Below are positions 2,789 through 57,786 of a stretch of 64,000 nucleotides of DNA, one piece after another. The stretch is from Patescibacteria group bacterium (GTDB lineage Bacteria > Patescibacteriota > Microgenomatia > UBA1400 > PJMF01), in contig JBMORQ010000027.1 in the NCBI GenBank assembly GCA_049322575.1, forward strand, positions 87,081 to 151,080. Direction: 5' to 3'. The position numbers and the translations under genes were made by a program. The notes below the pieces were generated by a model that saw nothing but the letters and a program-made list of their open reading frames with translations, had not been told where the DNA came from and searched no databases. Numbering within the stretch: the first letter of the stretch is position 1; every line of letters begins with the position of its first letter.

Positions 2789-2948
2789 AGACTCATGGCG
2801 AAATAAAATCTTGTAGTGGAAAACTGCTTTCCATAAACGAGGGGTTATTGAGAGAGGTAGTAGCACAGCTACTTCAAGCAAGAAAAAAAACCTTTGCAGT
2901 ACTTAAAAGCAGTTTTGTAATAAAAATGCTATTTCACTACAAGTCTAG
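2789..2948. repeat. Long (~160 bp) copy A of a dispersed intergenic MITE-like repeat with imperfect terminal inverted repeats
   Basis: Left end aagactcatggcgaaata and right end ctatttcactacaagtcta are near reverse complements. The internal core gtagtagcacagctacttcaagcaagaaaaaaaacctttgcagtacttaaaagcagttttgtaataaaaatgc is shared with the copy at 10881-11044. Confidence 0.7.
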
Positions 2949-5029
2949 TTATGACCAAGTTTAATGATTATTGTTTGACCTTCTGAAAAGACTACATTAC
3001 CCAATTGAAGTAGCTTTTGTTCATCCAAATCGGCATATGCTTGGCGCTCTTTTTCACCAATAAAAATGTATTGCACCCAGTATTTTGCGATAATTTCCTG
3101 AGACAGCAGGCTTTCTGGCTCTTCGTAAACCACCCTAACTTGCTCAGCCCGCTCTCCAACCTCATCATAGCCGCCCCGCCACAACCATTCATGAACTCTC
3201 CAACCAACGATGGTCGGCAAGCCGGTGAAGACCGACACACGCTCATAGTCTGTATAACTGTCTCCCACAGCCTCCAAAACCACTGGCTGACCAACAATGT
3301 TTTCTCGCAACCAAACTATTGCCTTGTAGTCCGCGGGGTATTTTTCCTGTAACCATTTCAAACCATCAAGACCTTGGTAGTTCTGGAAATTATAGTAACC
3401 TTTGTATGAGTATTTTACGAAGGAGAAAATTGATACAAAAAGCACCATCATTATGCTTATTAAAACTGTACGCATCGCTATATCGAATTTATTCCGTTGC
3501 TGAATAAAACCAAAAAACCAAGCAACCACCAACGACATGAGTGTGAAGGCTTGAAAAGTTAATTTGAACATTGTGTTGGCTCTCGGATGATCGGTATATA
3601 TATCTTTAACAAAGATCAGCTCAGGTAGAAGCAGCAAAACTAGCGCCGCAATGGTCATAGACAATATGAACAAGAAAGTATGTGAAATTCTTTTCTTTCT
3701 GGCAGCAAGAAGCTCGCTAACCGCAAAGACACTTGCCAACAAACTCCCGATCACATGCCAACCCCAGAGAATCGCTAGTTCTCTCAACGTTGAGCCTTCC
3801 TCAACAAAACCCAAACCCTCAGAAATCGATTTGAAGTTCAGCCACCAAAAACAGGAAGTTACAACAATCGACACTAAAACCACCAAGGCAGCAAGAAGCA
3901 GTGATAGGAAAAACGACCGATCCAATAGCAAAAGGCAAACACTCACTACCACCAACAACAAGCCAAAGATAGCCATATCCCAAGCACTTGTCATCAGCAA
4001 AACACCCAGTAATATGCCAATTATTCCAGACAAATAGAGCGACCCTCGCTTGGTCAGAGCAACTTGCTGGCCCTTTTCATCGATCATGACTTTTAGCCAT
4101 AACCAAATCGTGGGAATAATCAGCAGAACAAACACCAAGCTCCAAACATGAGCATGTAAATCACTCACAACGAAACTGTACGCCGGGAACTCGTGAATGG
4201 TATGGTAAATAAACCGCGTCGCGTCAGGATACCAATATCCGTCCATAGGATTTTCTTGAGAAAGATTCTTAAAAAAATACCAAAATGTATGGGAGTTACC
4301 GGCAAAACCAACTAATAACGCAGCCACAATTCCCGCAACTATCGGAATGGTCAGAAGATGCTTGGTTTTGTTCTTTGCCATCGTATATGCTGTGAGATTT
4401 GCCACTAAACCACCGCTCTGCATCATGACCAGTCCCATCACCAATCCTAGAGCTAAATTGTATGCTCGGTCGATCCCAATGCCCCAAAAATTGAGCAAGA
4501 TCCCACCTAGGAAATGACCAAAAGTGTAGTAATTCATGGTTTCTCCGGCAAACCACATATCGAGAGCCGGCAGAGTAGGGGATTTAGAGTAACTCACCAT
4601 GAAACCGGCATCCATAAATTTTTCTAAATCAAGAATCTGAGGATTATAGCCACGAACTATGCTTAGAAAGAAAAAACCAAAAACAAACAAGAGTTCCTCA
4701 ACAAGAATTAGAGGAGCTTTTTCCTTGAGGAAAGCAAGAAGAGTTGGCCAGCTTGCTTTCAGTTTTAGGATTGATAGGCCTAGCAGCACACCAAGTAGCG
4801 ACCAAAGACCCATCTGTGAATTCACTGGCAACTTGAGGTGAGCGAGAAACCAAATAATCAACCCAACTACCAACCAACCAATCGATCGACCCCACGCCCA
4901 ACCACCGTCGACTAAGTGTTTCCTTCCCCACACCAACAACCAGGGCATAACAACGATCTGAAAAACTCCTGTCAGTAGATAGGCGTAAGCAATTGTAACT
5001 AGATCGTTGGCCAAGGTAGACTGAAACAC
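2945..5029 (-). CDS. Large polytopic membrane protein (DUF2298 / YYY-domain-like), possible GT-C-type glycosyltransferase
   Basis: 694 aa with more than 12 predicted TM helices. C-terminal soluble domain with Y-rich motif YSYKGYYNFQNYQG. Sits in a glycosylation gene neighbourhood. Confidence 0.5.
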   Translation of the reverse strand: MFQSTLANDLVTIAYAYLLTGVFQIVVMPWLLVWGRKHLVDGGWAWGRSIGWLVVGLIIWFLAHLKLPVNSQMGLWSLLGVLLGLSILKLKASWPTLLAFLKEKAPLILVEELLFVFGFFFLSIVRGYNPQILDLEKFMDAGFMVSYSKSPTLPALDMWFAGETMNYYTFGHFLGGILLNFWGIGIDRAYNLALGLVMGLVMMQSGGLVANLTAYTMAKNKTKHLLTIPIVAGIVAALLVGFAGNSHTFWYFFKNLSQENPMDGYWYPDATRFIYHTIHEFPAYSFVVSDLHAHVWSLVFVLLIIPTIWLWLKVMIDEKGQQVALTKRGSLYLSGIIGILLGVLLMTSAWDMAIFGLLLVVVSVCLLLLDRSFFLSLLLAALVVLVSIVVTSCFWWLNFKSISEGLGFVEEGSTLRELAILWGWHVIGSLLASVFAVSELLAARKKRISHTFLFILSMTIAALVLLLLPELIFVKDIYTDHPRANTMFKLTFQAFTLMSLVVAWFFGFIQQRNKFDIAMRTVLISIMMVLFVSIFSFVKYSYKGYYNFQNYQGLDGLKWLQEKYPADYKAIVWLRENIVGQPVVLEAVGDSYTDYERVSVFTGLPTIVGWRVHEWLWRGGYDEVGERAEQVRVVYEEPESLLSQEIIAKYWVQYIFIGEKERQAYADLDEQKLLQLGNVVFSEGQTIIIKLGHN

Positions 5030-5220
5030 GGTGTATTATTATAAATAAGACTAAGTGAAAATAAATGAGAAAAACCGCAACAGGAAAGGCAACTTAATGT
5101 CTTACCGGCTCCAAGACGCTGAAGCAGCCAAACTCTAAGAATAAATTGTTTAACAGCAGCTAAGCAGGAATACTAGTTCGCTCAAAATGATAAGAGTCCC
5201 GGCTAATTAACTGATCTTAT

Positions 5221-7132: not shown

Positions 7133-7133
7133 T

Positions 7134-7730: not shown

Positions 7731-9419
7731 CTAACTACAGTTATTTTTCACATCATATACTACTTCACCGCTATCTGAAACGAAACTAGGCAAAAAGGTT
7801 TTTCGCAAAAGACTCTGACTCAAGTTAATGTTGGATGGTATCTCTCCTTGTCCGCTAACAAGATAAACGTAATCAATACCTTGTTGTTCTAAAAATTCAC
7901 AGACGTTCCTTTTATTAGTGTAAGTTGCAAAGATTGTCGATAGCTTTTTCCTTCTGTCTGAGTCGTTGTATCCCAAAGACCAAGCAAAATAACCATAATC
8001 TAAATATTGCTTTCTTCCGACCAAAGTAACCGGCGTATATAAATAGCTGTTGGTTACAAAAACACTATTTTTTGGAGTATTGTTCATAATCCAATTAGCA
8101 GTTTCGACCCGCTGATAATCGTTGATACGATATTTTTGATCGTTAATGATTGAAAAAGCGTCAACAACTCCAGAAAAAATCGTTAGCATAAAGATCAACG
8201 ACCCGAGTATCTTTAAAAGAAAACTCCCACGCAACATTTGAATAACAAAAGCAGCCATTCCTAAATTTAAAATAATGATGAAGAAGCTAACAAGTTTGTG
8301 GTTATTTATCAGGTCAGGGGATAACTGGATACAATTGGCAACAACAAAAAGAAAATAGGCCAGAAGCAGCAGTTTACGATAGTTTTTTGTAGCAAAGAAT
8401 AAAAAAAGTGGTAAAAAAATGAAATATAAACCTAGGTTAAAAAACCAATACCTAAGAATCGTCCAAATTCTTCCGTCAGCCGCCAAAAACCCGACCTTCC
8501 AAACCAAGTTTTGTTGAGAAGCTTCCGTTGAGGTCAGTACCACAACCAAAGATAACATCAGCGAAGCGAAATAAATAATCTTTACCCTTCTACCTAGCTG
8601 TTGACTGCGGTTCAACCAAAACCACCCAATTACAAAACAAAGCAATATCATCAGACCTGCTTGATGCAGTAGGGGCAAAACTCCGAAAACGACTGGAACG
8701 AGCAGGTAGTAAATCTTTTTAAACTTCTTTTCACCAATTACTACCATCTTGAGTAGCGGCCAAAAAGCTAACATGACCAAGCCATAACTCAGAGCAAGAT
8801 GACGCTGATTGGTATAAACATTCCAGTTCCAGAAGGCACTGACCAGCTTTCCATCCCATGGACCAAAACTGGCAAAAGTTGTTTGCGATGGTATAGACAT
8901 AAAAGCCTGCCAAGTCCAGCCAGTAACTCTGAAATACTCAACAAAGCTAAACGTGCCATTGAACAAAAAGAGAATTACAGCCAAGAACCCAATCTTACGT
9001 TTACCAAATAGCAGCAAACCATATTGATAAATCATCCACAACAAGAGAGTCATACCGATGATGCTCCAAAAGTTAACAGCAAAGGCAAAATCAAAACCAA
9101 GCTTCTCAACCATCGCTACTAACCAATAAAAAAAATAATGATAGCGTATCGGCTCTCCTGGGAACTGTGGATACTCTACAGGATAATTTTCTCCCACGGA
9201 AAAAGATCTAATCAATGGTAGATGTGCACCAAAATCACTAAACAATTTACTGGCAAGAATAATCTGATTGTCTTCATAAGCCAAAGTATGGCCCATTAAC
9301 CAATAACTAAAGGAAAAACAAACCAACAAAACAAATACATCTGCTATCACCATCAGATTCCGCGAAATAATCTTGCTAGTTTGATTAATTAAATTGATCT
9401 TCATTGACAATATGAGCAA
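7731..9419 (-). CDS. Polytopic membrane protein, putative GT-C fold glycosyltransferase (ArnT/PMT/YfhO-like)
   Basis: 562 aa with about 13 hydrophobic helices. Sits between the GT4, HAD and FAD-oxidoreductase genes. The family assignment is not proven from sequence alone. Confidence 0.45.
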   Translation of the reverse strand: MLILSMKINLINQTSKIISRNLMVIADVFVLLVCFSFSYWLMGHTLAYEDNQIILASKLFSDFGAHLPLIRSFSVGENYPVEYPQFPGEPIRYHYFFYWLVAMVEKLGFDFAFAVNFWSIIGMTLLLWMIYQYGLLLFGKRKIGFLAVILFLFNGTFSFVEYFRVTGWTWQAFMSIPSQTTFASFGPWDGKLVSAFWNWNVYTNQRHLALSYGLVMLAFWPLLKMVVIGEKKFKKIYYLLVPVVFGVLPLLHQAGLMILLCFVIGWFWLNRSQQLGRRVKIIYFASLMLSLVVVLTSTEASQQNLVWKVGFLAADGRIWTILRYWFFNLGLYFIFLPLFLFFATKNYRKLLLLAYFLFVVANCIQLSPDLINNHKLVSFFIIILNLGMAAFVIQMLRGSFLLKILGSLIFMLTIFSGVVDAFSIINDQKYRINDYQRVETANWIMNNTPKNSVFVTNSYLYTPVTLVGRKQYLDYGYFAWSLGYNDSDRRKKLSTIFATYTNKRNVCEFLEQQGIDYVYLVSGQGEIPSNINLSQSLLRKTFLPSFVSDSGEVVYDVKNNCS

Positions 9420-10880: not shown

Positions 10881-11044
10881 TAGACTTACAGCGAAACAAA
10901 ATTTTGTAGTGAAAAACTGATTTTTTTGAACGAAAAGGGTTTTTTTGAGTGAAGTAGTAGCATAGCTACTTCAAGCAAGAAAAAAACCTTTGCAGTACTT
11001 AAAAGCAGTTTTGTAATAAAACTGTTATTTCGCTACAAGTCTAT
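10881..11044. repeat. Long copy B of the MITE-like repeat family
   Basis: Left TIR tagacttacagcgaaaca and right TIR ttatttcgctacaagtcta. The internal sequence is about 90% identical to copy A. Confidence 0.7.
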
Positions 11045-15090: not shown

Positions 15091-15168
15091 TTAGACTTGT
15101 GGCGAAATAAAATTTCGTAGTACTTAAAAGCAGCTTTGTAATAAAAGCGCTATTTCGCTACAAGTCTA
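15091..15168. repeat. Short (78 bp) copy C of the MITE-like repeat, with near-perfect 18-bp terminal inverted repeats
   Basis: Left tagacttgtggcgaaata at 15092-15109. Right tatttcgctacaagtcta at 15150-15167 (17 of 18 complementary). Starts 2 nt after the uvrD stop. Confidence 0.75.
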
Positions 15169-20645: not shown

Positions 20646-20739
20646 ACTTGCTACAAAATTAAGTTTTGCGGTGAGATTTTGATTTTGCAACAGCAACTCA
20701 ACCAAGCTTTTGTTTTTTTGCCGTTAAGCCGTTTTTTTG

Positions 20740-38713: not shown

Positions 38714-38728
38714 ATAGAGACTACAAAC

Positions 38729-41543: not shown

Positions 41544-41630
41544 TGAGAGCAAGAACGGGGAAGGTAATACAGAGGTAAATTGAGAGCAAGAACGGGGAAG
41601 GTAATACAGAGGTAAATTGAGAGCAAGCTC
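41544..41630. repeat. 37-bp direct tandem repeat (2.3 copies) in a 615-bp intergenic region
   Basis: tgagagcaagaacggggaaggtaatacagaggtaaat occurs twice, followed by the partial copy tgagagcaagctc. Confidence 0.85.
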
Positions 41631-44737: not shown

Positions 44738-47509
44738 ATGAGAACAAAATATATTATTTTTTTGACTTTCCTATTTTTATATTTTTTCTGTTTTTACAAA
44801 GACGTAACTGCTGATGCAAGGTGTGGGATTGGTTCGTATTGTTCAGATAGCACCGGCGGTGAAGTAGTTACACAATGTTTTTGGAATGGTGCTTACTGTG
44901 AAAATTATAGATGGCACTGGGAGGCTGCAGATTGTAGCGGTAGCCCTACTTGCTATGATAGTGATTTTCCAAGCGGAGAATGTCCCGGATTACCTCCCTC
45001 AGGCACAAGTAAAGTCTATAGCTGTCCAATTGGAAATGGGGAAAATGATCATTTATGCGCAGGTTGTGACCCTTATGCTGTAGTAGACCTTGACGCACAA
45101 ACTCCAGAATCTAACTTCTGTACTGTTGGAGCTTATACCGATGTATGTAGTTGTCTTCCACAAAATGTCTCATGCGGTCCGCCCACAGGAAATGGCATGT
45201 GGTGCTGCCTCGCCGACGACGTCACCCCCACCCCCGGTGGTGGTGGCGGGCCAGGACCCACCACCCCTCCAGCTGCTCCCAACGATCCAATCGGTTATCA
45301 CGATGCCGTCAACTGTAACGGAGAGCAGATCTGGGGTTGGGCCTGTGACCCAGACAACTACAACGCGACTTTGCAGATCGACATTTACATAGACGGCAAT
45401 TATGTACCGCCAACCATCGCAAATCTCAATCGTCCAGACATTGCTGGTGTTTGTGGCGGTACCACTAACCACGGTTTCACTTACACCATCCCAGAGCAAT
45501 ACCGCGATGGTAACTGTCATTCGGTTCAGGCTTATGCACTCAACGCTTCTGGCACCCCAGGCAACAATTTTGGCTTAACTAACTCACCTAGAACTCTCTG
45601 CGGTTGTTATACCAACAAGAGTTGTACCATCAGCTTGTCTGGATCTAATCAGATAGTCTATAGTGGTTCACAAGTTGGCCCTGTTTTCCAGGTTGTTGCT
45701 TCTTCCGCCGAAACATATGACACATCGCATCTCTATATCATGCGTGATACCAACTCAGTGATCAGCCCAGCGCCGCTGTATTCAATAGATTCTGATCCAT
45801 ATCAAACCATGTCAACCGTTGTTGGTGGTTTGTACTACTATTACAACTCTCCTGTTTGTCACCCAAGTTTTGGCAATGCTTGCTCCTTTGGCGTCACTCT
45901 CAGCAGCCTGCCACCTGGCCGCTATGCCGCCTTTTGTGACGTCAGTGATAGTACAAACGGCAGCGACAGCTGTTCAGGTAATCCAAACTGTACCTTCAAC
46001 TCTTCAAGTTATCTCAGTCTCAGCTGTACCGGTTTCCGCGACTGTTCAAACAGTGACTGGACGACTTTTACCGTTGTCACACCATCTCCGAGTCCCACGC
46101 CAACTCCAACACCCAGTGCTTCGCCTACACCCAGCTCCACACCCACCCCAACTCCTACGCCGGCGATCCAAGGTTTCTTCTATGAGGAAACTGGCAGTAC
46201 TTTTATGGGTTCGGTTATTTGCTCAGATTTAAGTGGCATAACTCCTGCCCCGGTAGCACTTAGTAACTCAGTCGGTGGCATTTCAGCACATCGCACCAGT
46301 CCGGCAGGGGATTATGCTGGAGTGATTAGTAGTGATCGATTTAGCATCAATACTCCAGATAGTTCAGCTAACAACTATTCAGTTACTCTTGATCTCAATG
46401 GGCAAACTGATCCGTCCAACACCTGGGTCTGTTCTTGTCCACAAACTGTTGGCGGGGATCCTTTCGTTTGCCAATATCATGATGATATTCTCGGAATAGG
46501 TGGTAACCAGAAAAATGTGCCCTTTTTCTTAACAAACTACAACCTCAGCAACATCAGCTGGTGGCAAGTTGCTGGTGGCAACACTTATGCCCGTAATGTG
46601 ATTCGTTCACAAGTTCCATACGATATATGCAACCCAGAAAGTACTTGCTATGCCGGCCTGATGGCTGGTCTGCCTTGGAATAATAGCATTAGCAATACTG
46701 CTGGTTTCCCTCTGGTAGGCCAGGGTGGATCAATCATCACCAGCGATGACGGCACAAATTACATTCATGCGCCAGGATCAAGAAACCTAGCCGAACAGGG
46801 TAGAGGAATCGGCATTAGCTTGCCAAGAGAGGATTATGCTTATTTCTACGAACGGTTTGGTGCATCGGCTACACCATTAGGGGGTACTAATCCCAATAAA
46901 CCAGCCTCTGGTAGCTACATCACTAGTGGTTCAATTACTATCAACGAAACTAATTCTTGGTCTGTCTCCAGTGGCGAATCAATCGTTGTTTTCGTCAACG
47001 GCAACTTAACCATTGACTCCGCCTCAGCCGACACTAGGCTTACCCAAGTGGCCACGGGCGGTTATCTGGCATTTATCGTCGCCGGGAATATTACGATTGG
47101 TGATAGAGTTGGTTACTCAGATCCTCTGACTGATGCCACCCAACCAACCAATACCAATCTCGAGGGTGTGTTTATTGCCGACGGCACGATTACCGTTGCC
47201 AGTGATAACAATGCAACCACCATCGACAACAAATTTATTGCAGCTGGTACATTTGTAGGCTGGGGAGGTGTTAACCTTCAGCGTACTTATGAAGATGGCA
47301 GTTTAGGTGCGGCTAATAATAATCTGAGTCCGACCGAAACCTTTATTTTCCGCCCAGATCTGGTTGTCAACACTCCTGCATCAATGCGCTCGGCCCAATT
47401 CACCTGGCAAGAAATTAACCCCAGCTTTAACACCTTTGAGAGCCAGCCTCCTGTGGTCACCCCTACCGAGGAAGACCACATCGGTCCACCGGGCGGAAAT
47501 GTCATCTAG
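44738..47509 (+). CDS. Large (923 aa) Cys-rich secreted protein, a candidate pilus-associated adhesin. It has a signal peptide, Cys-rich N-terminal modules, a PT linker and a beta-helix-like C-terminal region.
   Basis: Signal peptide MRTKYIIFLTFLFLYFFCFY. More than 40 Cys in the first 600 aa. Linker TPSPSPTPTPTPSASPTPSSTPTPTPTP. Repetitive segment GNLTIDSASADTRL..GNITIGDRVG. Its 3' end overlaps the next pilin ORF. Confidence 0.6.
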   Translation: MRTKYIIFLTFLFLYFFCFYKDVTADARCGIGSYCSDSTGGEVVTQCFWNGAYCENYRWHWEAADCSGSPTCYDSDFPSGECPGLPPSGTSKVYSCPIGNGENDHLCAGCDPYAVVDLDAQTPESNFCTVGAYTDVCSCLPQNVSCGPPTGNGMWCCLADDVTPTPGGGGGPGPTTPPAAPNDPIGYHDAVNCNGEQIWGWACDPDNYNATLQIDIYIDGNYVPPTIANLNRPDIAGVCGGTTNHGFTYTIPEQYRDGNCHSVQAYALNASGTPGNNFGLTNSPRTLCGCYTNKSCTISLSGSNQIVYSGSQVGPVFQVVASSAETYDTSHLYIMRDTNSVISPAPLYSIDSDPYQTMSTVVGGLYYYYNSPVCHPSFGNACSFGVTLSSLPPGRYAAFCDVSDSTNGSDSCSGNPNCTFNSSSYLSLSCTGFRDCSNSDWTTFTVVTPSPSPTPTPTPSASPTPSSTPTPTPTPAIQGFFYEETGSTFMGSVICSDLSGITPAPVALSNSVGGISAHRTSPAGDYAGVISSDRFSINTPDSSANNYSVTLDLNGQTDPSNTWVCSCPQTVGGDPFVCQYHDDILGIGGNQKNVPFFLTNYNLSNISWWQVAGGNTYARNVIRSQVPYDICNPESTCYAGLMAGLPWNNSISNTAGFPLVGQGGSIITSDDGTNYIHAPGSRNLAEQGRGIGISLPREDYAYFYERFGASATPLGGTNPNKPASGSYITSGSITINETNSWSVSSGESIVVFVNGNLTIDSASADTRLTQVATGGYLAFIVAGNITIGDRVGYSDPLTDATQPTNTNLEGVFIADGTITVASDNNATTIDNKFIAAGTFVGWGGVNLQRTYEDGSLGAANNNLSPTETFIFRPDLVVNTPASMRSAQFTWQEINPSFNTFESQPPVVTPTEEDHIGPPGGNVI

Positions 47510-48134: not shown

Positions 48135-48641
48135 CTATTGCCACTTTTTAAATTGTTGAACAGCACTCACTTGGTGTTCGAGACTACCCTCACCAGGCCA
48201 GTAAACATTGACCTCTACTTCCAAATAATCAGCGCCTTTGGTCACCGTGGCCTCACGACTGAATGCAACTCCGGAGTTTGCAATGGTCAGGCCGTAACTT
48301 GAACACTCTCCCAGAGAATATTTGCTAAACCCATCAGCGTAATCCGGCAAAGTATTGAAACAATAGACTCCTGAGTTAAGTTGAAGGTAAAACTCATCCC
48401 AGCCAAGCAAAGCTTTTTCACGCCTGAAGACCTCTAGTAACTTCTGAGCTTGTTGAGTTGCCAGCTCTCGGTATTTCGACTCAGCGTTAGTCTTAACCGA
48501 ATAGCTCAAGGCAGCGGCAATCGCTGTTAGAGTTGCTCCAATGATGGCCGTAGCGATTAATATCTCAACTAGGGTCGAACCGAGCTGGGAGAAGCGAAGC
48601 GCCATGGTTTTCGTTGATTTATTTGATGTTTGTTGATTCAT
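48135..48641 (-). CDS. Type IV pilin-like / pseudopilin protein
   Basis: SQLG|STLVEILIATAIIGATL prepilin-like N-terminus. Confidence 0.65.
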   Translation of the reverse strand: MNQQTSNKSTKTMALRFSQLGSTLVEILIATAIIGATLTAIAAALSYSVKTNAESKYRELATQQAQKLLEVFRREKALLGWDEFYLQLNSGVYCFNTLPDYADGFSKYSLGECSSYGLTIANSGVAFSREATVTKGADYLEVEVNVYWPGEGSLEHQVSAVQQFKKWQ

Positions 48642-48669
48642 AACTTGATTTTACTGACTTTTGCCCAAA

Positions 48670-49182
48670 TTAGTTCCAAGACCCCTCTGTCATACTTCCA
48701 CCTCTATCGACCTGAAAACTATATGACAAACCGCTATAGGTGACAGTGATATCAGTGTTGACCGAGCCGGTTACGCCTCCGTCAAGCACAAGGAAACTGA
48801 GGGTTAGGTTTGTGGGATCAACACTGTAGCCATTCGTTGAAAACTCAACTATCTGAGTTGGACCATTTCCTCCGGTACAAACGGGTGTAATACATAGCTG
48901 TGCTTCACCGCAAGTTAAGGTGTTATGAACAACCTGGTAACTGGCTAATTGGCCGTTACAGCCGGAAGGAATCTCGCCGGCTCGTGCTTTGCTCTGTGCT
49001 AATAAAAAGCCTGTTTTAAGCTGCCGAACTGTCTCTAAAACGGTCTGACGGTTGTTAAAGCTCATGTAACTGGCCACACCAATTCCAACCATTAAAAGCA
49101 TGATCCCAACACTCACCAATAACTCAATTAATGTGAAACCTAAGGTATTTGTGCTCTGGCAGGCCTGGTGCTTTTTCTGCAT
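48670..49182 (-). CDS. Type IV pilin-like protein
   Basis: TNTLG|FTLIELLVSVGIMLL. Confidence 0.75.
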   Translation of the reverse strand: MQKKHQACQSTNTLGFTLIELLVSVGIMLLMVGIGVASYMSFNNRQTVLETVRQLKTGFLLAQSKARAGEIPSGCNGQLASYQVVHNTLTCGEAQLCITPVCTGGNGPTQIVEFSTNGYSVDPTNLTLSFLVLDGGVTGSVNTDITVTYSGLSYSFQVDRGGSMTEGSWN

Positions 49183-49237
49183 CTACATTCATGATAAACG
49201 AAAAAACTTGAGTTGTCTTGACAACAATCAACTTGCT

Positions 49238-49630
49238 CTAGAGATTGGTCACACAATATTCTTCAGCGGTTGACTCCAAGGTAGCACAGACTGAGAAAGT
49301 GGTACCAGCAGATGAGTACTCATATACTCCGTCCTTAGGATCGGCAATATTTGTATCACTAAGGTAATCACGAATGTCTTCAAGCATGGAACTAAAGCTA
49401 CTTCCGACGGGATAACTACCTTGGTCAGCTCGGTACATCGTTAGAGCTTGACGTACTGATTCTAGGTCTGTCTTACGCTTGGCATCTCTGCTGGTGATGC
49501 CTGCATTGCGATAACTAACCATACCGACAGCCGTTAGCACGATCATGATCGTGGCCACGACCAACAATTCAATCATGGTGAAGCCTGCCTGGCGAGTGGT
49601 TATTCGATCTTTTAAGCTATTCTTTGACAT
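49238..49630 (-). CDS. Type IV pilin. The start is taken at MSKNSLK (49630) rather than the ORF-track start at 49720.
   Basis: TRQAG|FTMIELLVVATIMIVL. Choosing 49630 removes the overlap with the upstream pilin gene. Confidence 0.75.
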   Translation of the reverse strand: MSKNSLKDRITTRQAGFTMIELLVVATIMIVLTAVGMVSYRNAGITSRDAKRKTDLESVRQALTMYRADQGSYPVGSSFSSMLEDIRDYLSDTNIADPKDGVYEYSSAGTTFSVCATLESTAEEYCVTNL

Positions 49631-49640
49631 AAACACCTCT

Positions 49641-50063
49641 CTATTGCAGGCTCTGCAGACAGTAGTATGTACCAGAACCAAATGAGCAAGTACCATTGGC
49701 CTGAGGAACATTGTTAGCATTTCCTGCGGTCGTGTCCTCTAGCTCGGCGCAGACACAATATGAGTCGGAGTCAGCCACACAACCATATGTGCCGGTCTTT
49801 GGATCAACAGGCACCACATTGCCGGGGAAGTCACCTCCAGCATACATGGTGTCACAGGCTGCGTAACTGCCTTCGTGGGAGGCATAATACTGCTCAAAGC
49901 CATCTTGAATCGCCTTGATATCACCGCGTCGACGGGCATCCCGACCCTTGCGTTGGGCCGTAGAAAAAGCCACACTGCCAATAATAATCAAAATACCAAT
50001 AATCGAAATCACCACAAGTAACTCGAGTAAAGTGAAGCCTTTTTGACTGCGTTTTTTGATCAT
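49641..50063 (-). CDS. Type IV pilin (PilA-like)
   Basis: MIKKRSQKG|FTLLELLVVISIIGIL with a 9-aa leader. Confidence 0.8.
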   Translation of the reverse strand: MIKKRSQKGFTLLELLVVISIIGILIIIGSVAFSTAQRKGRDARRRGDIKAIQDGFEQYYASHEGSYAACDTMYAGGDFPGNVVPVDPKTGTYGCVADSDSYCVCAELEDTTAGNANNVPQANGTCSFGSGTYYCLQSLQ

Positions 50064-50080
50064 GGAACTCCTTTAAGGGC

Positions 50081-51097
50081 CTAATTTGTCACGGTTATAT
50101 TAACCTTTGCCAAGACATTGCTTGCTGAGGTGGTACCTCGAGCGTTTTTGGCTTCAATAACGGTCTGGTAATTGCAACTTGGACCTCCACAAGTATAAAC
50201 ATGCTCGGCGCTACCCTGCAAGTCGGTAAACTGGGCTTGCTGACCGTCACCATAATAAAGCGTGATAGTAGTGCCACCTTTCACTTCAACTTTTGAGTCA
50301 GCTGACATAAAACTTTCCAAAAATGTCAGCATTGTGTAAATCACACCATCCATGCCGTTGAGCTGCTGTCCAAGATCTTCGCTAGTTTGATTGTCACTCG
50401 CCATGTATGAAAAAGTCACCAATTCGCCAGAGTGAACAGTTAGATTACGTGTTCTTGTGTCAAAAAAAGGATTAGTGTTAAAAGACAGAACCACTGGCCT
50501 CGACAAGCAACTTTGATAACAAGACTTTGGACAATCTGTCACGCCCAATAACTGATCACCATCTCCCAGCTCAAAGTCATCCATGCAACACTGAAAACCA
50601 AAACCTCCACAACTGGCGGTTGGCCCTGGCGGAATGGTAGACTCAAGGCTATCTCCATACACAGATTTTATTTGCTTTCCCTCAACTATGACCATTGCTT
50701 TTCTACCTAAAACTGAAAGCGTAACACCACTTAACTCACTGTCCCAAATAATGCCTGATTTACCAGGTTCTTTTTTGATGAAAGGCTTGAGTTTGACCGT
50801 CTCGATCTCAATCGGACTGAGCCGATACTGACTGCAAATCGCCTCGATGACGTATTCATTATCAGATATGAAACGCAACTGAAAACTCACCAAATCGTCA
50901 TCGGCTGATGAGCCACCCATCAACAAGCATTCGTTGACATAGGAGCCATTGTTTTCAACTAACTTAATCCTGTTTAAGCCCTGCTTTACTTGATTTACAC
51001 CGATAAAGAGCATTACCTCGCGCATCACTAACGAAATTACTATTCCAAACAAAGTCAGAGTCACAAAGAAACTAAAGAAGAATCTTAAGATACGCAT
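50081..51097 (-). CDS. Membrane-anchored protein of unknown function, inside the pilin operon. Cys-containing extracytoplasmic domain.
   Basis: N-terminal TM (FFFSFFVTLTLFGIVISLV). Cys cluster SCGGFGFQCCMDDF..DCPKSCYQSC. Lies between pilD and the pilin genes. Confidence 0.5.
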   Translation of the reverse strand: MRILRFFFSFFVTLTLFGIVISLVMREVMLFIGVNQVKQGLNRIKLVENNGSYVNECLLMGGSSADDDLVSFQLRFISDNEYVIEAICSQYRLSPIEIETVKLKPFIKKEPGKSGIIWDSELSGVTLSVLGRKAMVIVEGKQIKSVYGDSLESTIPPGPTASCGGFGFQCCMDDFELGDGDQLLGVTDCPKSCYQSCLSRPVVLSFNTNPFFDTRTRNLTVHSGELVTFSYMASDNQTSEDLGQQLNGMDGVIYTMLTFLESFMSADSKVEVKGGTTITLYYGDGQQAQFTDLQGSAEHVYTCGGPSCNYQTVIEAKNARGTTSASNVLAKVNITVTN

Positions 51098-51208
51098 ATC
51101 AAGATCATAGACTTATAAAAATAAGTATATCTTAAATTTTGCTTAAACATCTAGGGGTAATGCTAGAGTAACTGATACACATGAATAGTGTTTTCTTGAG
51201 AGATAAAG

Positions 51209-51267
51209 ACTTTTGTGGCACTCTATGCCAGTTTTGTCATAAAAGTGTTGTTTCACTTCAAGTCTAT
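51209..51267. repeat. Degenerate copy E of the MITE-like repeat
   Basis: agacttttgtggca...cagttttgtcataaaagtgttgtttcacttcaagtcta. Confidence 0.4.
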
Positions 51268-51311
51268 TGTGCTACAAAGCTTGTGTCTGTAGCAAAAGCC
51301 AAAAATGAAAC

Positions 51312-52133
51312 TCATACTGAGATTAGGTGCATATACCAATCCCAAATCTGATTTCCCCAAAGTAAAGCAATCGTCGTGCTTATAACTAAAAAGGGTCCAA
51401 AAGGCACCACCTGACCAAGTTTTTTCTTTTTTAGAACTAACAACACAACTCCCACCAGTCCTCCCAACAGAAATGATAGAAAAATCGCCACTAAGATTTT
51501 TGGCCAGCCCAGAATTAAGGCCAAGGGAACAGCTAGCTTCACGTCGCCAAATCCAAAACCCTTACCCTTGGTGAAAAACCACAAAGAGTAGAAAAATGCT
51601 ACTAAGCCAACCATACAAAAAACAGCAATTGCTAAATCCTCAAACCTCATCACCCCCAATATCACCAAAGCAAAGCGATAGAGTAGGGTGATAAACGTCA
51701 GCAAACCCACAGCTAGATCAGGAATTATATAGTACTTGAGGTCAGCCACCAGAATCACCAACAAGAGAATTGCCACGATTAGCCAAAAGAAGGGCTGTAC
51801 AAGATGCAGTGGTTGAGTTGTTAAACGGAAAAACAACGAGCCAGCCCAAAACCACCAGACAAACAAAGAACCGGTTAATAACTCTACTACCGGATGGATG
51901 ATGCCTATCGGTGCACGACAATTTCTACAACGCCCAGCCAGTACTAAAAAAGAAACTAAGGGAATATTGTCGAACCAAGCAATTTGTTTTTGGCATTTTT
52001 CGCATTTTGAGCGACCCGCTACCCACGACTCACCCTCAACCGTACGGTAAACAAAAACATTTAAAAAACTGCCTATTGAAGCACCTAAAAAAAATAAAAA
52101 ACCACTAACCAACAAAAACACTGGATCAAACAT
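51312..52133 (-). CDS. pilD: Prepilin peptidase (A24 family, PilD/TadV-type) with an N-terminal zinc-binding CxxC...CxxC
   Basis: CEKCQKQIAWFDNIPLVSFLVLAGRCRNCRAPI followed by multi-TM peptidase A24 core helices. Confidence 0.85.
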   Translation of the reverse strand: MFDPVFLLVSGFLFFLGASIGSFLNVFVYRTVEGESWVAGRSKCEKCQKQIAWFDNIPLVSFLVLAGRCRNCRAPIGIIHPVVELLTGSLFVWWFWAGSLFFRLTTQPLHLVQPFFWLIVAILLLVILVADLKYYIIPDLAVGLLTFITLLYRFALVILGVMRFEDLAIAVFCMVGLVAFFYSLWFFTKGKGFGFGDVKLAVPLALILGWPKILVAIFLSFLLGGLVGVVLLVLKKKKLGQVVPFGPFLVISTTIALLWGNQIWDWYMHLISV

Positions 52134-52258
52134 AAACTTAGTATATTAGACTTTAAAGTAAATACAAACAAGCGGTTGAGTTTTTTTTAAGAATCGGCAA
52201 AAAACTAGAGAAAACCTAAGGACAAAGCTGCTCAACCAAAAGCTTAACAAACAAAAAA

Positions 52259-52279
52259 CCCCGCCGAAGCGGGGTTTTA
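52259..52279 (-). terminator. Rho-independent terminator downstream of the major-pilin gene (bidirectional hairpin)
   Basis: ccccgc-cgaa-gcgggg flanked by A-run and T-run. On the minus strand it reads aaaaccccgcttcggcggggtttttt. Confidence 0.65.
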
Positions 52280-52298
52280 TCAACAAATTTTAAAACTT

Positions 52299-52904
52299 TT
52301 ATGGCAAGCAGATCATTTCTGTTGTCCAGTCAGCTACAGCTGGAGCTGTGTAATCAGCGCCATCAACACAGGCACCTGCCGGCAAACTGGCATTTGTACC
52401 ACAAGCCTTCATCGCCTCAAGTTTGAACTGATTTGAGGATGGGGTGAAGCAAACCGAGATATCACCGTCTTCTGGCTTAATTAGATTCAACACGTTATTA
52501 GCACTCGTGCCATTTAACTGATCGATAAATGATTGCTTTACTTCTTCGGTGTCAGCAAGTAACTGCAACCATGTTGGCTCTGTTGAGTCTCCGCCAATCG
52601 TACAATATCCATTTACAATGGTAAGACAAGTTGCGCTGCCGTCAAAAGGGTAAAGGGTAGCAGGCAAATTATCCTCTCCTTGATTCCATGGATACTCCTC
52701 CTGAATTGCATAGTAACGATCGATAGCATTGAGCAACTGGGCAGCGTTAGAACGAAGCCTGGTGTCACGACCCTTGTTAATTTGTTCGATTGGGTTAATC
52801 GAAGCCAAAACAGCCACGGCTAAAACACCAATCACGGCAATAACCACCAGAAGCTCAATCATGGTAAAACCAGCTGACCTTCTGAGGTGAGATAGTAATT
52901 TCAT
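52299..52904 (-). CDS. pilA: Type IV pilin, candidate major pilin. The start is taken at MKLLSH (52904), downstream of a strong SD, rather than the ORF-track start at 52919.
   Basis: MKLLSHLRRSAG|FTMIELLVVIAVIGVLAVAV. Has its own terminator and a 280-bp upstream intergenic region. Confidence 0.8.
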   Translation of the reverse strand: MKLLSHLRRSAGFTMIELLVVIAVIGVLAVAVLASINPIEQINKGRDTRLRSNAAQLLNAIDRYYAIQEEYPWNQGEDNLPATLYPFDGSATCLTIVNGYCTIGGDSTEPTWLQLLADTEEVKQSFIDQLNGTSANNVLNLIKPEDGDISVCFTPSSNQFKLEAMKACGTNASLPAGACVDGADYTAPAVADWTTEMICLP

Positions 52905-52910
52905 ATATTC

Positions 52911-52918
52911 CTCCTCCA
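52911..52918 (-). promoter_or_regulatory. Shine-Dalgarno sequence (GGAGGAGG) of the major pilin gene
   Basis: Minus-strand read gttGGAGGAGGaatatATGaaattacta. The ORF-track start codon ATG at 52919 lies inside this SD. Confidence 0.55.
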
Positions 52919-53200
52919 ACTTTTTCTGTTTACACTTTACACTACTTCCACAACTCGACGCAAGAGTTTATTTTGCCTTCAGTTTTGTCCTAAATTTGGA
53001 TAGTCTTCTCTCGAAATAAAAATTACTGGTAAAAAACTAATTTCGACAGTGCAAAGATGATCCTGGCATGACAAAAACTATTTTTATTCAATAGACTTGC
53101 TGTGGAATAAGATTTTGAATAGAAAAAAATACTACGCAGAAAGTCTGATTTTTACAGCAAGTAGTTGAACAAAAAAAACAAACCGGGCAGTAAAAGAGCC

Positions 53201-54403
53201 CTAGAATTGCGAAGTTAAATTGTAGATCGGCATAATAATGGCGATCACAATCATTCCTACACCAACACCCAAGACAATCATAATCATAGGCTCCAAGGCT
53301 GTTGTTAGGTTTTTGATAGCGTGCTCACTTTCTGATTCAAAATATGCTGAGAGTTTAAGCAAAATGTCGGTCAGTTTACCTGTTTCCTCACCCACAGCCA
53401 CCATCTGATTGAGAATAGATGGGAAAATTTCATGGCGTGCTATCGCCTGCGATAAAGCGACACCCTTCTCAACTCGCTTAGCTGATTCCTTGATAGCCTC
53501 ACGGTAGGTAACGCTCGTCATGGCCTCACCAACTACCTCCAATGCCTCAAGCAATGAAACACCGGCTCCAAGTAGCAGGGCCAGGGTACGGGAGAACTCC
53601 GTCAAAATGATCTTGGTGCGAACAGATCCATAGATCGGTACTTTTCCCAACCAACCATCAATGATCCGATCTCCGACCTCGGTCTTTTTCCAACTGCGCA
53701 GTGCCGAGAAACCTAGCACACCCAAACCAATAAAAACATACCAATAAGTGGACATTACATTTGAAACAGAGATAAGAATTTGGGTGGGAAGTGGCAAATC
53801 AGCTCCAAAATCTTTGTACATCGCCGTTAGCTGGGGAACGACAAAAACCATCATTACAAATGCCACTGCAACCATTGCCAAGACAATTATTACTGGATAA
53901 ATCAAAGCTCCCTTGGTTTTTTCACGAAACTCCTTGTCTTTCTCCATGGTATCTGCTAAACGTTGCAAAACTCCATCCAACATACCTCCAACTTCACCAG
54001 CCCTTACCAGTTGAATATAAACGCGAGAGAACGTTCCATTGGCCTTCTCCAGAGCTGTAGAAAAAGTACCTCCACCCTCGATTTCTTTTAGGAGATTTCC
54101 AATCAAGCGCCCCATCTCAGTTGTGCTTTGTTCTTCAAGAATCGACAGAGCTGTTGCCAAGGGAAGACCAGCATTTATCATGGTTGCTAGCTGACGAGTA
54201 AAGTTCACCAAATCACCATGCTTGATACCGCCTAGGATACTTTTCAAACCAAGAAAGCTCTCCTCACCAAGTGGCTTGACACTAATCACTAGTAAGTGGC
54301 GCTCCCCTAAAACGGCTGCTGCCTGGGATTGGGAAGAGGCCTCGACTTTTCCCTTAATCGGCTCTCCCAATTCATTTTTGGCGGTATATTTAAAAATTGG
54401 CAT
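53201..54403 (-). CDS. pilC: Type IV pilus platform protein PilC (GspF family)
   Basis: 400 aa. Two GspF-like repeats and 3 TM segments. Sits adjacent to pilT and pilB. Confidence 0.85.
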   Translation of the reverse strand: MPIFKYTAKNELGEPIKGKVEASSQSQAAAVLGERHLLVISVKPLGEESFLGLKSILGGIKHGDLVNFTRQLATMINAGLPLATALSILEEQSTTEMGRLIGNLLKEIEGGGTFSTALEKANGTFSRVYIQLVRAGEVGGMLDGVLQRLADTMEKDKEFREKTKGALIYPVIIVLAMVAVAFVMMVFVVPQLTAMYKDFGADLPLPTQILISVSNVMSTYWYVFIGLGVLGFSALRSWKKTEVGDRIIDGWLGKVPIYGSVRTKIILTEFSRTLALLLGAGVSLLEALEVVGEAMTSVTYREAIKESAKRVEKGVALSQAIARHEIFPSILNQMVAVGEETGKLTDILLKLSAYFESESEHAIKNLTTALEPMIMIVLGVGVGMIVIAIIMPIYNLTSQF

Positions 54404-54433
54404 ATTTTTTTACCTTCGTTAACCAACCCGTTG

Positions 54434-55489
54434 CTAACCACCGAGCAAACGATGCATCTCCTCGGGTCGGAACGATTTAGCAATTGCTGTGTCCTTGGTA
54501 ATTATTCCTTGTTGAACCAATTGCATGAGGTGGTTCTCGATCAGCATCATGCCTCCCACAGCTGACGTCTGGATCACATTGTCAATCTGGTGGGCCTTGG
54601 CTTCTCGGATCAAATTGCGAATGGCGCTATTGGCCACCATAATTTCAAACGCCGCAAAACGCCCTCCGTCCACTCTTGAAACCAGACGCTGAGACACAAC
54701 CATCTTGATCGTGCCAGCCAACTGTTGACGGATCTGTCCTTGCTGATTGGCTGGAAAAACATCGATCATACGATCGATTGTCTGAGCGGCAGTAGCCGTA
54801 TGCAGAGTGGCAAAAACCAAATGACCAGTTTCGGCGATAGTAATAGCCGAGGCAATGGTTTCGTAGTCACGCATTTCACCAACCAAAACCACGTCTGGGT
54901 CCTCCCGCAAAACCGAGCGCAGAGAAATATCCCAGCTATTGGTGTCTTGATTTATCTCACGTTGTGAAATAACGCTTTGTTTGGGTGTGTAAACAAACTC
55001 TATTGGATCCTCGATAGTTACAATGTGGTCAGGGCGGGTGGCATTAATTTCATCGATAACCGCTGCCAGAGTTGTTGATTTGCCTTCTCCCGTGGGACCA
55101 GTGACCAAGATTAGACCTTGATTGAACTGACTGACCTGATGAAAGATCGGCGGCAAACTCAACTCATCAATACTTTTAATGCGTGCAGGAATCAAGCGCA
55201 AAGCAGCCGAAAGATGACCCTTGGCGTGATAGACATTGACGCGGAAACGACCTTGATCGCTAAATTGATAACCAAAATCCAGTTCCTTGTTCACTTTTAC
55301 GTAATCACGCTGGTTCTGAGACATGAGTGGAAAAATCAAGGCTTTGGCACCCTCATCATCAAGAGGGGTCATGCCTTCAACAGCAGCCAAACGACCATCG
55401 ATACGAATCATGGGTGGACTGCCAACCACGATGTGTAGATCTGAGCCTCCTTGAATTACTAGCATTTGTAAAATGTCTTGAATTTCCAT
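54434..55489 (-). CDS. pilT: Twitching-motility retraction ATPase PilT
   Basis: LVTGPTGEGKSTTLAAVIDEIN Walker A, Asp box, and AIRNLIRE. Confidence 0.9.
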   Translation of the reverse strand: MEIQDILQMLVIQGGSDLHIVVGSPPMIRIDGRLAAVEGMTPLDDEGAKALIFPLMSQNQRDYVKVNKELDFGYQFSDQGRFRVNVYHAKGHLSAALRLIPARIKSIDELSLPPIFHQVSQFNQGLILVTGPTGEGKSTTLAAVIDEINATRPDHIVTIEDPIEFVYTPKQSVISQREINQDTNSWDISLRSVLREDPDVVLVGEMRDYETIASAITIAETGHLVFATLHTATAAQTIDRMIDVFPANQQGQIRQQLAGTIKMVVSQRLVSRVDGGRFAAFEIMVANSAIRNLIREAKAHQIDNVIQTSAVGGMMLIENHLMQLVQQGIITKDTAIAKSFRPEEMHRLLGG

Positions 55490-55490
55490 A

Positions 55491-57683
55491 TTAAACCTCC
55501 GCCACTCTCTTAACCTCCTCGATGGTAGTTAGACCATCAAGTGCCTTGATATAACCGTCTTGCTTCATAAAAAGCATACCATTTTTTACTGCCACTTTCT
55601 CGAGGTCGCCCGCAGGGCGTCGTTCCATAATTAAATGACTGATTTCCTCAGTAATTTTCATGACCTCGTAAATACCAATACGTCCCTTGTATTCCGGTTC
55701 AGTGTGAGGACGATCCTCCTTTGGCCTAAAAAGGGTTATCTCATCAGGTTTTTTGTTATGTTGCTTACACCAACTATCAAATTTTTCTCCTAAGACTTGT
55801 TTAACATCGTTTATCACTGCCTCGTCTGGCTTATATTCCTCGCGATAATCCTGATTGATTTTTCTCACCACACGCTGAGCCATAGCTAAAGTCATTGATG
55901 ATGCAAGCAAAAAGGGCTCAGCTCCCATATCGAGTAAACGAGGCAAAGCACCGGCTGCAGAGTTGGTGTGCAGGGTAGAGAACACTAAATGCCCTGTTAA
56001 AGATGCCTGGATAGCAAGCTCAGCAGTTTCACTATCACGAATCTCTCCAACCATGATGATGTTGGGATCCTGACGCAAGAAAGAACGTAAACCGTTGGCA
56101 AAAGTCAGACCAGCCTGAGGATTAATTTGCACTTGGTTAACACCTGGCACCTGATACTCAACCGGATCCTCAAGAGTCATGATGTTGACCTTGGCGGTAT
56201 TGATAATGTGTAACACAGAATATAAGGTAGTCGTCTTACCTGAACCGGTTGGACCTGTGACCAAGACAATTCCATGCGGAACTTTTATGGCTTCCCGTAA
56301 GTCTCGTAAAGCCATGCCGGTTAGGCCAAGTTCTTCCAAGGTAGGGGCAGCTACGTCTTTTTTAAGCAACCGCATCACGACTTTTTCACCATGAATGGTG
56401 GGTAGGGTAGAGACACGCAAATCAACTTCTTGGTTATCACTCGCGTAGTTAAAGCGTCCATCTTGAGGGATACGTTTTTCATCAATCTTGAGGTTGGTTA
56501 AAATCTTAATACGAGAAACCACCGCGTCATGGACCGTCTTTGGCAAGATCAGACGCTCAGTTAAAATGCCATCGATGCGATAGCGCACCCTAGTGCGACC
56601 AATCAATGGCTCAATATGAACATCCGAAGCCCTGGATCGCATCGCAAAATCCAAAATCGTCTCTACAATGCGGTTAATTGGGGCAGCTCTAACTACGCCT
56701 CCAGATAACTCAGATAGATCTTGTTGCTGGCGACGACGCTCAATTTCTTGAGGTGCTTCTTGCAAAGCTTGGGTAACTTCAGATGAGAGATTCTGTGAAT
56801 AGCGCTCAGCAATTACTCGGTCTAGCTCTGAGGGCATAGCATAGAAGGGAATGATCTCGCAACCAGTTTTTTGACGAATAAAATCAATCGCCACCAAATC
56901 CATGGGGTTTTCCATGGCGACATTGAGGCTATTGTTCTGCTTATCCCAAGCAAAAGGGAAAAGTTTGTAACGCCTGGCTACGCTTTCATCGACCTTATTA
57001 ATCGCCTCAGGCGACATACCCGTTTCAGAAATTTTAATGTAGGGTATGTTATAGATTTCAGCCTTCGCCTTAGTGATTGTCTCCTCACTGACCTGCTGCT
57101 GATCTCGAAGGATATCCTCGATTGCTTTGCCGGTGCTTAAATGTTCTTGGTTGATTTTTACAACGTCTGCCTGGCTAAGTAAGTTCTTTTCGAGCAATAC
57201 CTCAACGACAGTTTTCTGACCCACAGTGTTGCTCTGTCCGTCCGAGTCAGAAGCCACCTTGGGGTTAGTTGGAGACGATGTACTAACCAAATTGCCTACC
57301 TCTGATTGACCTGGGTTCTGACTTGAATCTGCTGATGTCTGACTGGATTGGTCAACGATTACCACAGGCGCATCCGCACTTGCCCCGGCCGACTCCAACT
57401 GAGTAGCAATATTTTCTGAAAGACTCTCAACTTCCTCTGGAGATATTGATTGGTTACCTGCCGCCATATCCAACCCCAGACCAAGACCCTGACTTGATTG
57501 AGGTAGCTGATTAGATTCTGTAGAACCAGTAACACTAATCTGCTCTGAAAATTCCGAACCAGAGGGATCCGAGACCGAAGAACTCATCGAAGGAGCTAAA
57601 ACAGATGAAACAACATTTCCTCCCATAGATGGAGGACTAATCGGAGGCACCTTGACTGGTGAGTTTTGGACAGGCTCAGTCAT
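55491..57683 (-). CDS. pilB: Type IV pilus assembly ATPase PilB (GspE family) with an N-terminal Ser-rich disordered extension of about 170 aa. The start is uncertain; the ORF track gives 57743.
   Basis: GIVLVTGPTGSGKTTTLYS Walker A. T2SSE_N-like LLEKNLLSQADVVKI. The N-terminus SPPSMGGNVVSSVLAPSMSSSVSDPSGS... is low-complexity. Confidence 0.85.
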   Translation of the reverse strand: MTEPVQNSPVKVPPISPPSMGGNVVSSVLAPSMSSSVSDPSGSEFSEQISVTGSTESNQLPQSSQGLGLGLDMAAGNQSISPEEVESLSENIATQLESAGASADAPVVIVDQSSQTSADSSQNPGQSEVGNLVSTSSPTNPKVASDSDGQSNTVGQKTVVEVLLEKNLLSQADVVKINQEHLSTGKAIEDILRDQQQVSEETITKAKAEIYNIPYIKISETGMSPEAINKVDESVARRYKLFPFAWDKQNNSLNVAMENPMDLVAIDFIRQKTGCEIIPFYAMPSELDRVIAERYSQNLSSEVTQALQEAPQEIERRRQQQDLSELSGGVVRAAPINRIVETILDFAMRSRASDVHIEPLIGRTRVRYRIDGILTERLILPKTVHDAVVSRIKILTNLKIDEKRIPQDGRFNYASDNQEVDLRVSTLPTIHGEKVVMRLLKKDVAAPTLEELGLTGMALRDLREAIKVPHGIVLVTGPTGSGKTTTLYSVLHIINTAKVNIMTLEDPVEYQVPGVNQVQINPQAGLTFANGLRSFLRQDPNIIMVGEIRDSETAELAIQASLTGHLVFSTLHTNSAAGALPRLLDMGAEPFLLASSMTLAMAQRVVRKINQDYREEYKPDEAVINDVKQVLGEKFDSWCKQHNKKPDEITLFRPKEDRPHTEPEYKGRIGIYEVMKITEEISHLIMERRPAGDLEKVAVKNGMLFMKQDGYIKALDGLTTIEEVKRVAEV

Positions 57684-57733
57684 CACTAAAGCTCTACAAA
57701 GACAAACAAGCCAAGAAAAGCTTGTTCGGCTAA

Positions 57734-57786
57734 CTCGTAGCAAAATCTTATCTTGAAATAGTTCTGTTTATTCGCTACAAGTCTAA
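57734..57786. repeat. Degenerate copy F of the MITE-like repeat in the pilB/holB divergent spacer
   Basis: ...gaaatagttctgtttattcgctacaagtctaataat. Confidence 0.4.

Follow-up and report, generated by a model that had tools for sequence, protein, structure and literature searches.

How does a bacterium from a group with small genomes, usually thought poor in mobile DNA, come to carry a dense family of short repeats between its genes? The question is raised by a 64,000-nucleotide stretch (hereafter the window) of contig JBMORQ010000027.1 (positions 87,081 to 151,080; assembly GCA_049322575.1) from a member of the Candidate Phyla Radiation (CPR)/Patescibacteria. An initial annotation, made from the sequence alone, had described here a family of intergenic repeats bounded by inverted repeats of about 18 bp, interpreted as non-autonomous transposable elements, with a role as terminators, RNA stability elements or small RNAs as the alternative. 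We show below that the family is real, that it very probably consists of decaying transposable elements of the miniature inverted-repeat kind (MITEs) and that its ends match those of an IS5-type insertion sequence (IS). The placement of the host in the CPR is also upheld, the UvrD protein encoded in the window being an exact match to a protein of a metagenome-assembled genome (MAG) listed at NCBI as Patescibacteria group bacterium, where it is encoded on a 190-kb contig.

The case for a single family begins with its ends. When searched on either strand with up to three mismatches, the motif TATTTCGCTACAAGTCTA occurs eight times in the window, compared with 0.05 matches expected by chance; this expectation derives from dinucleotide-preserving shuffles, none of which (0 of 100) gave eight matches. 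Six of the matches lie on the plus strand and are right ends (at 2930, 11026, 15151, 38696, 51249 and 57768), while the remaining two, on the minus strand, are left ends present as the reverse complement (10881 and 15092). The family consensus for the 18-bp end is TAGACTTGT(A/G)GCGAAATA. A repeat finder additionally identified a 64-nt right half common to five elements, designated A to E (75-100% identity to the reference copy), and a 28-nt left end that A, B and C share with both "remnants" (20639 and 53088). With a nhmmer profile of the right half, A to E scored at E-values of 1e-17 to 1e-19 and no further strong copy was detected in the window. In all, the window contains eight elements (A to H) of 163, 160, 78, 77, 74, 60, 58 and 54 bp, equivalent to approximately one copy per 8 kb and about 1% of the stretch. 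The initial annotation had grouped them into two size classes, but the lengths form a series from 163 to 54 bp. Pairing between the two arms is complete in C (18/18 positions), partial in B (15/18), A (14/18) and H (13/18), and decayed in D, E, F and G. The elements thus display the properties by which MITEs are recognized: they are short and non-coding (54-163 bp), they possess terminal inverted repeats and they are dispersed in several copies per genome (eight in the window and at least a further two or three at 3.5 kb beyond it).

A further such property, ends equal to those of a transposase-bearing element, was found in IS copies from other samples, and it is this search for a cognate transposase that bears out the original interpretation of a non-autonomous family bounded by terminal inverted repeats. 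Genome and metagenome collections were scanned with the end-based pattern AAAA-N5-ATTTCRCTACAAGTCTA, giving two and three loci, respectively. None contained the interior of the window MITEs; instead, the loci included an IS and two foreign MITEs. The IS (L005; contig Ga0359897_10155, 9188-10199) is 1,012 bp long, has the ends TAGACTTGTAGCATAATA and TATTTCGCTACAAGTCTA, and contains a single open reading frame (ORF) of 301 amino acids with Pfam matches to DDE_Tnp_4 (2e-26), HTH_Tnp_4 (2.4e-07) and DDE_Tnp_1 (5.3e-06). Across metagenome contigs, IS copies measure 1,005-1,012 bp and are bounded by 18-bp inverted repeats TAGACTTGTAGCGAAATA with 0-2 mismatches. Two of these (L007 and L008; 1,011 and 1,007 bp) encode transposases 86% and 73% identical to that of L005, with ends agreeing at 16-17 of 18 positions. 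Overall, the IS ends in L005, L007, L008 and L017, all accompanied by a DDE_Tnp_4 transposase and all from other samples, agree with the window ends at 15-18 of 18 positions. The window copies resemble the IS over the terminal 26 bp only, which fits the usual relationship of a MITE to its source of transposase.

The transposase family itself is large and sparsely annotated. At E≤1e-10 we recovered 2,902 homologues, mostly on contigs of approximately 1 kb, as would be expected given that a multicopy IS breaks assemblies. The closest annotated relatives (38-44% identity) are genes of cyanobacterial plasmids, labelled "transposase family protein" in RefSeq; the annotated plasmids supply only generic "transposase" labels and no IS name. 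One such element, on plasmid pNPUN02 of Nostoc punctiforme (NC_010632.1, 224881-225885), is 1,005 bp long, encodes a transposase of 41% identity and is bounded by 26-nt inverted repeats starting TAGACTTGTCGGGAAATA. In an alignment of 12 family members extending down to this 41% identity, residues D137, D212 and E256 are invariant and lie within the motifs DGxER, DxGF and RVxxExA..KRY; assigned by motif, they would constitute the catalytic triad in the usual IS5/Harbinger signature. The L005 transposase falls below the cut-off of the curated NCBIfam model transpos_IS5_4 (84.5 vs 140 bits); it is a relative of the curated IS5 equivalogs and not one of them, and we assign it at superfamily level only.

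Both foreign MITEs combine the same ends with unrelated interiors. The first (L001, 3131-3292) is a 162-bp element in a MAG labelled Gammaproteobacteria, and the second (L002, 7814-7994) a 181-bp element in a Defluviitaleaceae MAG. As a separate observation, the L005 IS lies beside a gene for a 207-residue protein (8479-9102, minus strand) whose homologues (≤76% identical) have 250-260 residues, with NlpC/P60 carried by the more distant ones; insertion of the IS may have removed the 5' end of this gene.

Ends in common with an IS could also be left behind if full-length IS copies had been deleted in place, so that the elements would be scars and not multiplied short units. Several copies are indeed very short (54-60 bp) with one end decayed, as such scars might be. 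Against this, the 64-nt right half shared by A to E and the 160 bp shared by A and B are dissimilar to the IS interior. Independent deletions of an IS would not yield the same non-IS interior, and hence the short unit itself was copied; we regard the origin of the family by deletion in place as very improbable.

We consider it highly probable, instead, that an IS5-superfamily insertion sequence gave rise to the window elements as short derivatives without coding capacity, or carried them along as hitch-hikers. Their 18-bp inverted repeats would serve as the recognition site of the IS transposase, in which the N-terminal HTH_Tnp_4 domain would bind DNA and the DDE_Tnp_4 domain would be catalytic. 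Provided in trans by a full-length IS that resides elsewhere in the genome, or was once present there, the transposase would bind both ends and excise the element, which would then insert at a TA dinucleotide, of which AT-rich spacers and TAA or TAG stop codons offer many. The long form (~160 bp) is an almost fully palindromic fold-back element, from which the shorter forms (54-78 bp) would derive by internal deletion. Judged from the shared ends, transposases of this DDE_Tnp_4 family are the putative agents that moved the window copies. With 75-88% identity among the copies, and with the left end decayed in several, the family looks old; given this 12-25% divergence and the losses at one end, most copies are probably no longer mobile.

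The flanks of the elements speak to the target site. In the window, the GAC...GTC termini are bordered by TA in six cases out of eight on the left and in as many on the right, and the majority of IS ends show the same dinucleotide, a pattern consistent with TA being the duplicated target. We infer transposition into the window sites from these sequence features.

Several observations weigh against a derivation from this IS, or at least weaken it. Within the 64-kb window, tblastn revealed no transposase of the same family (best E 1.4). Being invariant, the flanking TA may be either a duplicated 2-bp target or simply the outermost part of the repeat, and no longer direct repeat is seen. No empty site was found, the homologues of the window UvrD reaching at most 62% identity. 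The IS-bearing contigs carry no taxonomic assignment. The interior of the window MITEs was found nowhere else, in what was a weak test (end-based scans, together with one interior 20-mer against viral contigs). Finally, a simple cut-and-paste model does not predict the uniform orientation of the copies discussed below.

The searches behind these points can be stated more fully. The exact UvrD protein occurs on one other contig only, from the same sample, and the next best UvrD/PcrA homologues, several of them named Candidatus Pacebacteria, are 59-62% identical; an exact record for the Lon-like protein of the window was not found. For the L005 IS, the four contigs that carry its neighboring gene all either contain an IS end or stop short of it, and a homologue of 73% identity is not syntenic. 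Among viral contigs, the end 18-mer gave two isolated matches without a transposase, their second end unmatched at ≤4 mismatches, while the interior 20-mer gave none. One of these end matches lies in GC-rich, coding-looking sequence and the other is a possible tiny element. On an IMG/VR contig (L019; UViG_2846165226_000002, 4343-4390), an exact left end TAGACTTGTAGCGAAATA is followed after ~14 nt by TATATTTCCTACAATTTATA, which matches a right end weakly; either this is chance, or the viral contig may hold a tiny member of the family.

Inspection of the individual copies refined the picture given by the initial annotation. The six copies that it listed exist at the positions given, their sequences had been quoted correctly, and its counts of left-end mismatches (A, 3; B, 4; C, 0) are right. 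Copy A (2788-2947, plus strand) is a long form of 160 bp whose left end, AAGACTCATGGCGAAATA, agrees with the IS consensus at 14 of 18 positions and whose right end agrees at 17. Copy B (10881-11043, plus strand), the other long form, is 163 bp in length, with 15/18 agreement at the left end and 18/18 at the right. These two are 87% identical over 159 aligned columns, making the earlier figure of about 90% a fair one. The best-preserved element is copy C (15092-15168, plus strand), a short form of 77 bp in which all 18 end positions pair, one of them as G-T. Relative to A and B it is missing ~85 bp bounded by the direct repeats GTAGT and GCAGT, a gap compatible with deletion between short direct repeats.

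Copies D, E and F had been described as truncated or degenerate. Degenerate they are, but truncation alone does not describe them, for each extends to a recognizable, decayed left end. Copy D (38636-38713, plus strand) is a 78-bp short form with a right end matching at 17/18 and a decayed left end at 11/18. The diverged copy E (51207-51266, plus strand; 60 bp) has a 15/18 right end and the left end AAGACTTTTGTGGCA, and copy F (57732-57785, plus strand; 54 bp) a 16/18 right end and a left end decayed to TAACTCGTAGCAAAAT. The two possible remnants are likewise degenerate elements and together represent a variant subfamily, with no strand assigned to either. Copy G (20643-20700, ~58 bp) starts with the left end TAGACTTGCTACAAAATT; its right boundary is tentative, the right end being strongly decayed (7/18 positions agree with the consensus). 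Copy H (53092-53165, ~74 bp), on the other hand, looks like a complete small element and not a remnant, since it has both ends, the left ACTTGCTGT pairing exactly with the right ACAGCAAGT.

The symmetry of the elements reaches well past the 18-bp ends. In copy B the left 65 nt resemble the reverse complement of its own right 64 nt, rendering the element an imperfect palindrome throughout, folded around a 9-bp hairpin at its center; as RNA it folds with -50.9 kcal/mol (z -5.8). Such structures invite the view that the copies are functional RNA or DNA hairpins, acting as terminators, 3' stabilizing stem-loops or small RNAs. Indeed, long hairpins that clearly surpass shuffled controls form in B (z -5.8), C (z -7.6) and, less markedly, A (z -2.8), most copies sit just past stop codons or in convergent spacers, and MITEs of other bacteria are known to have been co-opted as RNA or 3' structures (PMC3184786). 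The DNA fold of copy H gives a z of -2.9. Yet a terminator and promoter scan of 1-20 kb called no stem with a T-run, the mark of a terminator-like site, on any of the copies A to C, and the bases following their right ends (gttatg, taacca and gtgtac) are not T-rich. At the gathering threshold, Rfam identified only tRNA-Val in the window and nothing on the copies; under relaxed conditions (E≤1), B and C gave matches to microRNA precursors of 16-25 bits, against thresholds of 60-101, at E 0.01-1. In D, F and G the hairpin is not maintained, their folds being no more stable than those of shuffles, and the mismatches between the arms of A and B (14/18 and 15/18 pairing) are uncompensated. Because of these uncompensated mismatches, and because D, F and G do not fold beyond shuffles, the copies have the character of decaying DNA rather than of a maintained structure. 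Moreover, the orientation of the copies is uniform despite the direction of the flanking genes, so they cannot all be 3' structures of the upstream gene, and a hairpin function leaves their identity with IS ends unexplained. With no terminator on A to C, no Rfam family and a hairpin lost in D, F and G, the alternative offered by the initial annotation is not sustained as the primary nature of the family, and we judge it improbable; secondary co-option of single copies is possible.

All eight copies are intergenic, in spacers that are convergent (A, D and G), tandem (B, C, E and H) or divergent (F). The earlier statement to this effect therefore holds, with the qualification that the stop codons of two genes fall within elements. 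The terminal CTA of copy A provides the stop codon (TAG, at 2945-2947) of a DUF2298 gene (2945-5029, minus strand). Similarly, the first bases of copy G, TAG, are the stop codon (20643-20645) of a DUF5660 gene (19974-20645, plus strand), in whose product the Pfam match extends to the final residue. That the terminal TAG of an element ends two genes accords with elements having inserted where a stop codon offered its TA.

Elsewhere, copy C begins 2 bp past the stop codon of the UvrD/PcrA gene; copy D lies where a PilO-like gene converges on one for a KhpA-type KH-domain protein (38727-38959, minus strand); copy F separates two divergent genes, one for DNA polymerase III delta' and the other for a pilus ATPase (called start 57683); and copy G adjoins tRNA-Val. 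The sole ORF touching any element is that at 2501-2806, which overlaps the left end of A. It is probably spurious, since it has no Pfam match and overlaps a real PEGA/SH3 gene. The genes around the copies are ordinary ones, encoding a Lon-like protease, DUF2298, PMT, TIM, UvrD, FemAB, PheT, PBP1, RecG, GyrB/GyrA and the type IV pilus cluster. This last, at 48135-57683 on the minus strand, comprises a prepilin peptidase, an N_methyl pilin, T2SSF and two T2SSE ATPases, one of them with an MshEN domain, and copies E, H and F occupy its spacers.

Is the family then a peculiarity of this window, as the initial annotation had allowed that it might prove to be? A Logan contig of run SRR32167786 (L018) argues otherwise. 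It covers the window from 41598 onward and continues for 3.6 kb past the window end, where three successive left ends (TAGACTTATAGTGGGAT, TAGACTTCCTGCAAAAT... and TAGACTTGCAGCGAAGTA...) lie within 130 bp, at 15964-16089 of the contig (equivalent to window 67485-67610), directly behind a PKD-domain gene's stop codon. The last two run into the long-form interior TTTGTAGTGAAAAACTGATTT, and the contig terminates inside the last left end of the cluster, an arrangement that suggests nested or tandem insertions. A second Logan contig of the same run starts inside copy B. Contigs of the same sample thus hold more copies and break inside copies; the family extends beyond the window and acts as an assembly repeat.

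The orientation of the copies presents a puzzle. Copies A to E and probably F are in the plus orientation, and the two or three found past the window end agree with them, irrespective of the direction of the flanking genes. For six to eight orientable copies, full agreement by chance has a two-sided probability of ~0.03 to 0.008; those outside the window, being immediate neighbors, may not count as independent in this statistic. All sixteen 4-kb bins of the window have negative GC skew. The bias could reflect chance, replication-linked insertion or selection. It is tempting to speculate that co-orientation results from replication-coupled, strand-specific insertion, or from selection on orientation relative to the fork, in a reduced CPR genome, with the TA-targeting TAG...CTA ends perhaps recruited repeatedly as stop codons. 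We hold this to be rather unlikely; if true, it would be a behavior unreported for this transposon superfamily, in the first described Patescibacteria MITE family.

A single orientation is also a feature of attC arrays and of some clusters of repetitive extragenic palindromes (REP). One might consequently ask whether the copies are REP-like palindromes, or bacterial interspersed mosaic elements built from them, moved by a REP-associated tyrosine transposase (RAYT; an IS200/IS605-type Y1 transposase), or else attC-like recombination sites. Like those, they are intergenic, palindromic and variable in length, with conserved ends and one orientation. Their ends, however, equal those of the DDE_Tnp_4 IS, and the GTTRRRY core is absent from them; among the ORFs examined there is no Y1 transposase or integrase; and copies are separated not by cassettes but by housekeeping genes (UvrD, TIM, PheT, RecG, PBP1, GyrB and pilus genes). 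On the strength of end sequence and gene content, we rejected both the attC/integron and the REP/RAYT readings, which have scarcely any probability left to them.

Other features of the window were recorded in passing. The GyrB gene (58668-61481, plus strand) is split by an intein (Pfam Intein_splicing, which spans residues 507-731 and separates the GyrB domain from the Toprim domain), and GyrA follows downstream after a DHH-family gene. At 41540-41613 a 37-nt unit, AACTTGAGAGCAAGAACGGGGAAGGTAATACAGAGGT, is present twice in tandem at 97% identity, and a source-sample contig begins at ~41598, within this repeat. The repeat lies upstream of two large ORFs (41900-43984, plus strand, 694 amino acids; 44738-47509, plus strand, 923 amino acids) that, together with the ORF at 7731-9419 (minus strand, 562 amino acids), have no Pfam match at E≤0.001. 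The ORF at 50081-51097 (minus strand, 338 amino acids) has none at E≤0.01.

Taken together, our findings describe standard MITE biology in an unusual host. A literature search returned no relevant paper on MITEs in Patescibacteria or on IS5 in Patescibacteria/CPR. A MITE family at this density indicates that this lineage, at least, has experienced a burst of transposon activity. The consequences are also practical. The copies break short-read assemblies, two source-sample contigs ending inside copies; furthermore, they can supply stop codons to neighboring genes and may serve as a lineage-specific marker.

Among known systems, the elements compare most directly with the small, non-coding, intergenic repeats of other bacteria. 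Nezha elements of Anabaena and Nostoc are 130-170 bp long and have ends in common with ISNpu3 of N. punctiforme, and Correia elements of Neisseria occur in two size classes through internal deletion (PMC3184786). MITEAba12, like Nezha, is documented by empty versus filled sites (PMC6382973). The window family resembles all three in being bounded by terminal inverted repeats, in forming stable hairpins, in its length classes and in sharing ends with an IS, here one found in another organism. It differs from them in an interior unrelated to anything retrieved and in its Patescibacteria host. A connection of the window family to Nezha, through a possible identity of the pNPUN02 element with ISNpu3, is a lead only.

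At the level of the transposase, the IS transposases with DDE_Tnp_4 and HTH_Tnp_4 domains are bacterial relatives of eukaryotic PIF/Harbinger. The window elements have in common with IS5-superfamily insertion sequences the 18-bp repeat, with its counterpart TAGACTTGTCGGGAAATA in Nostoc, and the TA flanks, and in the metagenomic IS with these ends the D/D/E residues are invariant; unlike the IS, the window elements are non-coding, measure 54-163 bp and share only the terminal 26 bp with it. The same comparison can be extended to the Tourist-like MITEs (mPing/Pong) of plants, which PIF/Harbinger transposases mobilize and which likewise involve the DDE_Tnp_4 superfamily, terminal-only sharing with an autonomous element and an AT-rich, TA-containing target. 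Harbinger elements duplicate a 3-bp TWA target and depend on a second, Myb-like protein, whereas the window flanks agree on TA only and the IS has a single ORF. Within this wider assemblage, the 18-bp end links Patescibacteria, cyanobacterial plasmids, a Gammaproteobacteria-labelled MAG and a Firmicutes MAG to one widespread, poorly annotated family of IS5-like transposases.

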